Shown piece by piece: positions 3,001 through 6,000 of a DNA stretch of 64,000 bases. The DNA comes from Escherichia coli (GTDB taxonomy: Bacteria; Pseudomonadota; Gammaproteobacteria; Enterobacterales; Enterobacteriaceae). The position numbers were made by a program. The stretch lies in the NCBI RefSeq assembly GCF_024502345.1, contig NZ_JALDNN010000001.1; one strand, given 5' to 3'. How positions within the stretch are numbered: the stretch's first letter is position 1; the number at the start of each line of letters is the position of its first letter.

Positions 3001-6000
3001 AATGCCGATGACGACCTGCTGCGCCAGATAGCCTCTTACGGTCGTGGTTACACCTATTTGCTGTCACGAGCAGGCGTGACCGGCGCAGAAAACCGCGCCG
3101 CGTTACCCCTCAATCATCTGGTTGCGAAGCTGAAAGAGTACAACGCTGCACCTCCATTGCAGGGATTTGGTATTTCCGCCCCGGATCAGGTAAAAGCAGC
3201 GATTGATGCAGGAGCTGCGGGCGCGATTTCTGGTTCGGCCATTGTTAAAATCATCGAGCAACATATTAATGAGCCAGAGAAAATGCTGGCGGCACTGAAA
3301 GTTTTTGTACAACCGATGAAAGCGGCGACGCGCAGTTAATCCCACAGCCGCCAGTTCCGCTGGCGGCATTTTAACTTTCTTTAATGAAGCCGGAAAAATC
3401 CTAAATTCATTTAATATTTATCTTTTTACCGTTTCGCTTACCCCGGTCGAACGTCAACTTACGTCATTTTTCCGCCCAACAGTAATATAATCAAACAAAT
3501 TAATCCCGCAACATAACACCAGTAAAATCAATAATTTTCTCTAAGTCACTTATTCCTCAGGTAATTGTTAATATATCCAGAATGTTCCTCAAAATATATT
3601 TCCCCTCTATCTTCTCGTTGCGCTTAATTTGACTAATTCTCATTAGCGACTAATTTTAATGAGTGTCGACACACAACACTCATATTAATGAAACAATGCA
3701 ACGCAACGGGAGAAATAACATGGCCGAACATCGTGGTGGTTCAGGAAATTTCGCCGAAGACCGTGAGAAGGCATCCGACGCAGGCCGTAAAGGCGGTCAG
3801 CATAGCGGCGGTAATTTTAAAAATGATCCGCAACGCGCATCTGAAGCGGGTAAAAAAGGCGGTCAACAAAGCGGTGGTAATAAATCAGGCAAATCCTGAT
3901 TCACCGTTAATTATTAATATCAGCTGATAAAGATAATTGCATCTGCGGGCCGTATGGCTCGCAGTGATTTCACTGGAGAAAAATATGAATATGAAGACCA
4001 TTGAAGATGTATTTATTCACCTGCTTTCAGATACCTACAGCGCAGAAAAACAATTAACCCGGGCACTGGCAAAACTCGCAAGAGCAACATCAAATGAAAA
4101 ATTAAGTCAGGCTTTTCATGCGCACCTCGAGGAAACTCATGGACAGATTGAACGTATTGATCAAGTTGTGGAGTCCGAATCGAACCTGAAAATTAAGCGC
4201 ATGAAATGTGTGGCAATGGAAGGTCTCATTGAAGAAGCTAATGAGGTCATCGAAAGTACCGAGAAAAACGAAGTGCGTGATGCCGCACTGATTGCCGCAG
4301 CACAGAAAGTCGAGCATTATGAGATTGCCAGTTACGGGACATTAGCGACGCTGGCTGAACAATTAGGTTATCGTAAAGCAGCGAAGCTTCTGAAAGAGAC
4401 CCTGGAAGAAGAAAAGGCCACCGACATCAAACTGACTGATCTGGCCCTTAATAACGTAAATAAGAAAGCCGAAAATAAAGCCTGAAATATGAACTTTAAC
4501 TTTTAGTCATTTTATAAAGAGGACATTTTCATGAATCGTATTGAACATTATCATGACTGGTTACGTGACGCCCACGCAATGGAAAAGCAAGCCGAATCTA
4601 TGCTTGAATCCATGGCCAGCCGTATAGATAATTATCCTGAACTACGCGCTCGTATTGAACAACATCTTAGTGAAACCAAAAACCAGATTGTTCAACTGGA
4701 AACTATTCTTGATCGTAATGACATTTCACGTTCAGTCATTAAAGATTCCATGAGTAAAATGGCTGCGCTTGGGCAGTCAATCGGTGGTATATTCCCTTCT
4801 GATGAAATAGTCAAAGGCTCTATTAGCGGATATGTCTTCGAGCAATTTGAAATCGCCTGTTACACCTCACTATTAGCAGCAGCAAAAAATGCCGGTGATA
4901 CAGCTTCAATTCCAACCATCGAAGCGATTTTAAATGAGGAAAAGCAAATGGCCGACTGGCTGATTCAGCATATTCCGCAAACAACTGAGAAATTTTTAAT
5001 TCGCTCTGAAACTGACGGCGTAGAAGCGAAGAAATAATACACTTTATGCCATGTCCTTATTGACCCCGTATATTACGGGGTCGTTTTTTTGTGGAATTAA
5101 AAACGATATCCTGCTGAGAACATAAACACCCACGGATCGAGGCGTACGCTATCGTGTTGCTGTGCACCGCCTAGCTTATAATTGGCGGTGGTATCGATAT
5201 CCATGTACCACACTGACATGTTAACCAACCAGTCACGGTTAATCAGATAATCAACCCCCACCTGCCCGGCAGCTCCCCAGGAATCTTTCAGACTGAGATC
5301 GGAAAGCCCCGCCTCTTTGCCATGATCGTTAAATCCATTATCAAAGAAGGTGGTGTAGTTAATACCGGCCCCAACGTAAGGACGGAATTTGCTGCTGGCA
5401 TCACCAAAATACCACTGCGCCATCAGTGTTGGCGGCAGATGGTGAACGGTTGCAATATCGCCGGTCGCCCGGGTGCCGATTTTATGGCGGAACGGCGTCG
5501 CTGCCAGTAATTCCACACCAATGTTGTCGGTCGCCATATAAGTAAACGTCAAGCCCAGTTGAGTGTTATTGGTCACGCTGAATCCACCCAGACTTCCTAA
5601 CGTACCACCAGCACCTTCTGTTGGACGTACGGTTGCAGAACCTGCACGCATAAAAAATTCGCCTGCTTCATGCGCAAAGGCACTGCCAGAAAGAAGAGTT
5701 GTTACTGCCAAAGCCGCCACTGTTAACTTTTTCATATCCGCTCCGTCGTTATGGTTATAAAAACGTGACGAATATACCTACATTGGAGTAACAAATGATC
5801 CTACATAGATCACATTACATATGATAATTCACCATTTATTGATCTGGATTAATTTAGAAGTTGCATTGAGAATCCTGGTTAATGTGATTTAAATCAATTT
5901 TTAAATATTTTCTTTACGCAAATATTAACTCGATCGCCACTTGCCGCGGTTTGCCCACGCCTGAAGGCCAGCAATTACCTCCGCTTTACAAAGATATGCT

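Follow-up and report, generated by a model that had tools for sequence, protein, structure and literature searches.

The window analyzed in this work, a stretch of 64,000 nt of Escherichia coli DNA, carries the ompW gene and, divergently oriented, the yciC gene, separated by an intergenic region of 356 nt (5736-6091). The surroundings of this region are E. coli chromosome. In fact, the segment 5000-6900 is found with 90-100% identity in 5420 of the 5426 complete E. coli genomes, where it is annotated as yciE, ompW, yciC, and yciB, and the gene arrangement at ompW is the same in strain MG1655. The first-pass annotation of this DNA, which was based on the sequence alone, had proposed two FNR-type motifs within the ompW-yciC divergent region, and the ORFs on both sides bear out this location. 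The features of the region, together with their conservation in the promoter alignment described below, are collected in Table 1.

Table 1. Features of the ompW-yciC region in the window, listed by coordinate, with positions relative to the ompW transcription start site (TSS).
Feature	Coordinates	Strand	Sequence	Position	Function	Majority fraction (26-promoter alignment)	Basis
ompW CDS	5097-5735	minus			212-aa outer membrane protein W; regulated gene		ORF list and annotation
ompW TSS	5764	minus	G	29 nt upstream of ATG			5' RLM-RACE (PMC4886647); window base is G on the minus strand
-10 hexamer	5771-5776	minus	TATATT	-12 to -7		1.00	position inferred from published TSS; invariant in 26/26 orthologous promoters
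NarL 7-2-7 site	5775-5790		TACTCCAATGTAGGTA	centre -18.5	nitrate repression		published sequence, single match in window; EMSA and mutagenesis (PMC4886647)
Inverted repeat TGATC-N7-GATCA	5796-5812		TGATCCTACATAGATCA	centre -40		arms 0.99 / 1.00; spacer 0.57	arms conserved, spacer free (alignment)
cAMP-CRP site	5799-5814		TGTGATCTATGTAGGA	centre -42.5	activation without glucose		published sequence, single match; cAMP-dependent EMSA, TGTGA deletion (PMC4886647)
Proximal FNR site	5839-5852		TTGATCTGGATTAA (plus strand), reverse complement of TTAATCCAGATCAA (ompW strand)	centre -81.5	activating	half-sites 0.91 / 0.98; spacer 0.85	consensus scan; EMSA, mutagenesis, lacZ fusions (PMC4886647)
Distal FNR site	5884-5897		GTGATTTAAATCAA, which is TTGATTTAAATCAC on the ompW strand	centre -126.5	repressing	half-sites 0.57 / 0.78	consensus scan; ChIP-seq assignment (Myers et al., 2013); EMSA and mutagenesis (PMC4886647)
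yciC ORF	6092-6835	plus			encodes YciC		ORF list
Whole promoter						mean 0.68

The published sequences of the two FNR sites, the CRP site, and the NarL site have one match each in the window, and the centres of these matches fall at -81.5, -126.5, -42.5, and -18.5, i.e., at the published distances from the TSS. The locus is the same as that of the E. coli K-12 ompW promoter (Xiao et al., 2016, Front Microbiol 7:799; RegulonDB). The window comes from a strain that is not K-12, and the published experiments concern the MG1655 sequence. Between the distal FNR site and the ATG, the two sequences differ in a single base (5834), located between sites, and they differ also upstream of about -140. 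All four sites are identical, and thus the K-12 experiments are directly applicable to the window. In the description of PMC13058942, this promoter is among the most completely annotated of E. coli. When the segment 5700-6120 was scanned with the sigma-70 consensus, the ompW promoter went undetected and the only match was a weak one on the plus strand near yciC; this outcome is consistent with an activator-dependent promoter having a poor -35 region. Taken together, we consider it very likely that the stretch under study is the upstream half of the well-characterized, multi-input ompW promoter of E. coli.

The motif that had been marked at 5839-5852, with exact coordinates, is a real and already published activating FNR site upstream of ompW. 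It matches the FNR consensus TTGAT-N4-ATCAA at 9 of 10 positions and has the correct N4 spacing. Its centre at -81.5 from the published TSS is not one of the canonical FNR positions, -41.5 or -61.5. It is within 1 bp of -82.5, a helical-phase position that allows activation by FNR in synthetic promoters. When the FNR(D154A) protein was used in EMSA experiments, two complexes were formed on the ompW promoter, one of which was lost with each single-site mutant and both with the double mutant, and in lacZ fusions the mutation of the -81.5 site reduced anaerobic expression about 3-fold, down to the level of a delta-fnr strain (PMC4886647).

The list of FNR sites given by the first-pass annotation lacked a second one, since another 9/10 match to the consensus, GTGATTTAAATCAA, lies 45 bp further upstream than TTGATCTGGATTAA. 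It is to this distal site that the FNR ChIP-seq peak at ompW was assigned, in the category of directly repressed genes (Myers et al., 2013). Assuming an offset of +1976 between the U00096.2 and U00096.3 coordinates, the summit given for this peak, 1,311,935, would fall at about -80, on the proximal site instead. Mutation or deletion of the -126.5 site increases expression 2-3-fold, and the repression exerted from it requires an intact -81.5 site (PMC4886647). Taken literally, FNR was therefore mapped by ChIP-seq at a position other than the one first proposed, the observation that had been named beforehand as contrary to that proposal, yet the later targeted study found that both sites bind FNR.

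The other motif had been described as a longer, FNR-type palindrome of 17 nt located at 5795-5811. These coordinates are one base off, because 5795-5811 reads ATGATCCTACATAGATC and TGATCCTACATAGATCA stands at 5796-5812. Of its 17 nt, only the outer 5 nt pair (TGATC with GATCA), the 7-nt spacer being non-complementary. The spacing is also wrong for FNR: the arms, (G)TGATC and GATCA(T), leave a gap of 9 nt between GTGAT and ATCAT instead of the 4 nt of an FNR site, and the 4-mer cores TGAT and ATCA are 9 nt apart here versus 6 nt in the FNR consensus; the excess of 5 bp amounts to half a helical turn.

The repeat overlaps instead the published cAMP-CRP site. This site matches TGTGA-N6-TCACA at 7 of 10 positions, with a perfect left half (TGTGA) and, beyond the hexamer TCTATG, a weak right half (TAGGA, 2/5). 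The site overlaps the -35 region, and its centre deviates by no more than 1 bp from the class II position (about -41.5). The binding of CRP at -42.5 requires cAMP, and deletion of TGTGA removes both the binding and the induction by galactose (PMC4886647). The distal arm of the repeat, which reads GATCA on the plus strand (5808-5812), belongs to the half-site TGTGATC of CRP. As for the proximal arm, GATCA(C), it occupies 5796-5800 (-36 to -32), 5 bp beyond the canonical second CRP half-site. Thus, the supposed palindrome combines this CRP half-site with another conserved arm, GATCA(C), and is not an FNR site.

To follow these elements in other enterobacteria, species-representative genomes were searched for sequences encoding the OmpW peptide EFFMRAG by means of a degenerate pattern. 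The pattern gave many chance matches in unrelated phyla, and 28 loci were OmpW orthologues. They belong to Escherichia, Salmonella (arizonae and diarizonae), Atlantibacter, Buttiauxella, Cedecea, Lelliottia, Huaxiibacter, Phytobacter, Dryocola, Kosakonia, and Enterobacter, together with several unclassified Enterobacteriaceae; Klebsiella, Citrobacter, and S. enterica subsp. enterica are not in the set. For the footprint, 26 distinct promoters, representing about 11 named genera, were aligned with MAFFT.

An FNR match scoring 8/10 or better was present in each of the 25 orthologues whose upstream sequence reached 300 nt, the background of such matches being 6.7e-4 per position. The conserved proximal site has its centre between 104.5 and 117.5 nt upstream of the start codon ATG, in most cases at exactly 110.5 nt as in E. 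coli, and four of the five columns of each half-site are invariant, with no invariant column in the spacer. The distribution of the distal FNR site is uneven: a match of 8/10 or better located 44-45 bp upstream of the proximal site was limited to E. coli, S. arizonae, Atlantibacter, the MAG UBA7338, and Phytobacter. Among six E. coli lineages (96-100% identity), every half-site base of the FNR sites is kept, and the sole change inside an FNR site is that of ST131, which affects the proximal one in its N4 spacer; the spacer of the repeat is also variable among these lineages. In the case of CRP, the left half and its flanks are conserved across genera, and the right half TAGGA is not (0.78 overall), its only invariant bases being the last two, both of which fall within the GATCA arm.

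The repeat itself has in most genera the form (T)GTGATC-N7-GATCAC(T), i.e., a pair of perfect CRP-type half-sites separated by N11, and its arms are 6 nt long in 21 loci. The motif TGATC-N7-GATCA has 27 matches in 266 kb of enteric DNA, all of them at ompW promoters. In Salmonella and Dryocola, a second CRP register located 5 bp downstream scores equal to the first one (8/10 each). The distance from the proximal arm to the -10 hexamer is constant in all the sequences aligned, including Enterobacter sp. kpr-6, whose repeat has a degenerate distal arm and a spacer that lacks 1 nt. This fixed distance favors a possible role of the proximal arm in the -35 region or in the contact with RNA polymerase. 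What can be said is that its invariance is left unexplained by the canonical CRP geometry (TGTGA-N6-TAGGA).

As judged from these comparisons of sequence, the conservation across species shows that both motifs are real. The -81.5 FNR site and the CRP site have also been reported as conserved in Salmonella, Yersinia, Klebsiella, and Enterobacter (Xiao et al., 2016; PMC4886647), and a phylogenetic-footprinting paper of 2026 that used ompW as a benchmark recovered two FNR peaks, a CRP peak, and a NarL peak (PMC13058942). The assignment of sites made here agrees with that independent published footprint.

Two further observations concern Salmonella. Immediately downstream of the proximal FNR site there is a conserved block, AATGTTAAATTA, which in Salmonella is the ArcA site ABS-1 and in E. 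coli shows two substitutions. Moreover, a SoxS/MarA box overlaps in Salmonella the distal FNR site.

Several other readings of the motifs have to be considered. In a single sequence, they could be taken for functionless chance matches to a consensus. The pattern TTGATN4ATCAA with at most one mismatch, i.e., a match of 9/10 or better, has 7 matches in the window against 3.28 expected, a number reached by 4 of 100 shuffles, so that a single FNR match is unremarkable; the positions of the other FNR-like matches were derived from the ORFs of the window itself. Likewise, the window contains 82 perfect inverted repeats in which arms of 5 nt flank a spacer of 7 nt (versus 63 +/- 9 in shuffles), and thus such a common 5+7+5 repeat is not distinctive in one sequence. 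Nevertheless, the Poisson probability of two FNR matches with at most one mismatch within the 356-nt intergenic region is about 2e-4, the position and the sequence of the motifs are conserved across genera, and the repeat motif is exclusive to ompW promoters. The published binding and mutagenesis data have already refuted this explanation (PMC4886647), to which we give practically no weight. It is also highly improbable, although slightly less so, that both motifs are FNR sites, the repeat being a third one at about -40, in the class II position. Its centre is in fact near -41.5, and its arms resemble the half-sites of the FNR/CRP family, GTGAT being as well a half-site in the -126.5 site. However, GTGAT-N9-ATCAC is 5 bp too long when compared with TTGAT-N4-ATCAA, and the 14-mers read around the repeat in the two registers all stay below 8/10 of the FNR consensus in the 26 species. 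The published experiments point in the same direction: only two FNR(D154A) complexes are formed on the full fragment from -215 to +56, and no complex is formed on a fragment from -167 to -36, which truncates the proximal arm, when both sites are mutated (PMC4886647). Since the mutation of the -81.5 site alone brings anaerobic expression to the delta-fnr level, no FNR-dependent activation is left for the repeat. The reading of the repeat as a third FNR site can be regarded as largely refuted already.

The possibility that the complete repeat, (T)GTGATC-N7-GATCAC(T), from -49 to -31, is a functional unit superimposed on the published CRP site deserves more attention, although we consider it rather unlikely. 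It would be a further input to a six-factor promoter, either as the target of an unassigned dimeric regulator, as dual CRP registers (an activating one at -42.5 versus a non-activating one at -37.5), or as a pair of GATC sites sensitive to Dam/SeqA. This proposal would account for arms that are invariant or nearly so in the 26 promoters around a free 7-nt spacer, that extend to 6 nt in most loci, and of which the proximal one lies outside the canonical CRP register. The equal scores of the two registers in Salmonella and Dryocola fit the second variant. The GATCs of the arms, at 5797 and 5808, are 11 bp apart, and a third one, at 5841, lies inside the proximal FNR site; these GATCs fit the third variant. 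On the other hand, the loss of CRP binding and galactose induction upon deletion of TGTGA indicates that CRP alone accounts for the distal arm, and the constant distance between the proximal arm and the -10 hexamer, maintained in Enterobacter sp. kpr-6, agrees better with a function in the -35 region or in RNA polymerase contact than with a dimeric site. A literature search found no paper relating the GATC pairs of the repeat to Dam methylation and no ChIP-exo data on ompW. No regulator is known to have TGATC-N7-GATCA as its motif. Among the known motifs considered for the repeat, FNR, CRP with N6 or N8, the LysR-type T-N11-A, OxyR, and the Mar/Sox/Rob box do not fit both arms together with N7, and neither do the ArcA direct repeats, the NarL heptamers, Fur, IHF, or the ARG box.

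The interpretation that we favor, i.e., that of the known multi-input ompW promoter, assigns a role to each site. Under oxygen limitation, a [4Fe-4S] FNR dimer binds to TTAATCCAGATCAA at -81.5 and increases ompW transcription about 3-fold, and when active FNR is higher, a second dimer binds to TTGATTTAAATCAC at -126.5 and reduces expression about 2-3-fold (PMC4886647). The combination of an activating site at -81.5 and a repressing site at -126.5 results in a transient microaerobic maximum. In addition, cAMP-CRP bound to TGTGATCTATGTAGGA at -42.5, in a class II-like arrangement overlapping the -35 region, activates the promoter in the absence of glucose, phosphorylated NarL at -18.5 is responsible for the nitrate repression of ompW, ArcA represses ompW in a way that depends on FNR, and H-NS silences it aerobically (PMC4886647). 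As proposed by those authors or as might be inferred from their data, FNR at -81.5 could displace or antagonize H-NS silencing, and/or could behave as an upstream class I-type activator partnering the class II CRP. Because -81.5 and -126.5 are outside the canonical class II and class I positions of FNR (-41.5 and -61.5), the activation could be due to H-NS antagonism or to alpha-CTD contact.

This architecture has relatives among the oxygen-regulated promoters of E. coli. In yfiD (grcA), a proximal FNR site reportedly activates and a distal one down-modulates expression. The likeness to ompW consists in the tandem FNR sites and in the occupancy of the distal one at higher FNR activity, which lowers expression and gives a microaerobic maximum. 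The yfiD sites lie at about -40.5 and -93.5, the activating one being a true class II site, whereas in ompW the activating FNR is at -81.5 and it is CRP that sits at the class II position. The ansB promoter is co-activated by FNR and CRP from tandem sites. It shares with ompW a CRP-family activator at about -41.5 and a second one 40-50 bp upstream, and thereby the integration of oxygen and carbon signals. Its order is the mirror image, with FNR at -41.5 and CRP at about -91.5, versus CRP at -42.5 and FNR at -81.5 in ompW. Finally, cydAB, which was grouped with ompW by Xiao et al. and Myers et al., is also FNR-repressed, ArcA-co-regulated, and H-NS-affected, with a microaerobic maximum; in contrast, ArcA activates cydAB and FNR only represses it, whereas FNR both activates and represses ompW and ArcA represses it.

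The essentials of this promoter were already known, and the first-pass annotation was right in part. Reading the sequence recovered a real, published regulatory site, and the importance of the finding does not go much beyond that. The corrections are that the second motif is part of a CRP site, that the repressing FNR site had been missed, and that the coordinates of the palindrome were shifted by one. As a by-product, the alignment revealed that GATCA(C), from -36 to -32 of the ompW promoter, is invariant across about 11 named genera of enterobacteria and is nevertheless located outside the canonical CRP model.

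The ompW promoter contains, in addition to the activating FNR site centred at -81.5 (5839-5852, hereafter the proximal site), a second FNR match, GTGATTTAAATCAA, which corresponds to the already published repressing FNR site at -126.5. The first-pass annotation had rightly listed the proximal site as a candidate FNR-type palindrome of ompW and had omitted the distal one, whose conservation is patchy beyond Escherichia. In E. coli ET729, an ISEc68 element is inserted upstream of the -126.5 site, where it disrupts neither FNR site nor the core promoter. PGAP also annotates a remnant of a YkgJ-family gene directly 5' of yciC in all the E. 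coli records examined, and it may explain the unusual length of the ompW-yciC intergenic region.

Positions of the features discussed (window coordinates, except for ISEc68; FNR scores are matches over the 10 positions of TTGAT-N4-ATCAA)
Feature	Position	Strand	Location or description
FNR match GTGATTTAAATCAA, 9/10	5884-5897		45 bp upstream of the proximal FNR site of ompW
Block AATGGTGAATTA	5824-5838		Homologous to Salmonella ABS-1 AATGTTAAATTA
Remnant pseudogene, 90 nt	5975-6064	+	PGAP: YkgJ family cysteine cluster protein, missing N-terminus
ISEc68, IS5-like	372-1352 of comparison locus L007 (ET729, NZ_CP100927.1)		ompW-yciC intergenic region
FNR-like match TTGATTTGGATCAC, 9/10	20198-20211		ychE-adhE intergenic region
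TTGATGCTTATCAA, perfect FNR consensus	29397-29410		Within purU (28931-29773)
TTGATAACGATCAA, perfect FNR consensus	37253-37266		Precedes the narG start codon (37161, minus strand) by 92-105 nt
IS1, 768 nt	37457-38224		narK-narG intergenic region; 23-nt terminal inverted repeats
TTGATGTAAATCAA, perfect FNR consensus	39782-39795		Just upstream of narK
FNR match TTGATATTTATCAT, 9/10	39820-39833		Just upstream of narK

Elsewhere in the window, we take TTGATAACGATCAA to be the FNR box of the narG promoter, given its position and the published box sequence. The two matches preceding narK are spaced 38 bp apart, in agreement with the two-site FNR arrangement of its promoter. Between these genes lies an IS1 copy with a 9-bp target duplication (ATGAAATCC) on either side. 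Its distance upstream of the narG start site is estimated at roughly 240 nt, and only a minority of E. coli genomes have the element at this position. The TTGATTTGGATCAC match precedes the adhE start codon by about 225-236 nt. The perfect consensus inside purU probably arose by chance or has no regulatory role.

The ompW promoter also carries three Dam GATC sites (5797, 5808, and 5841) within 48 nt, whereas the window as a whole averages 4.0 such sites per kb. Each arm of the TGATC-N7-GATCA repeat (5796-5812) holds one of them, 11 bp apart, and the third falls inside the proximal FNR site. Most genera retain each of the three.

Next to this FNR site lies the homologue of ABS-1, an ArcA site validated in Salmonella. 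This block is highly conserved in other genera, but in E. coli two of its bases are substituted (AATGGTGAATTA versus AATGTTAAATTA), which suggests a different wiring of ArcA control in this species.
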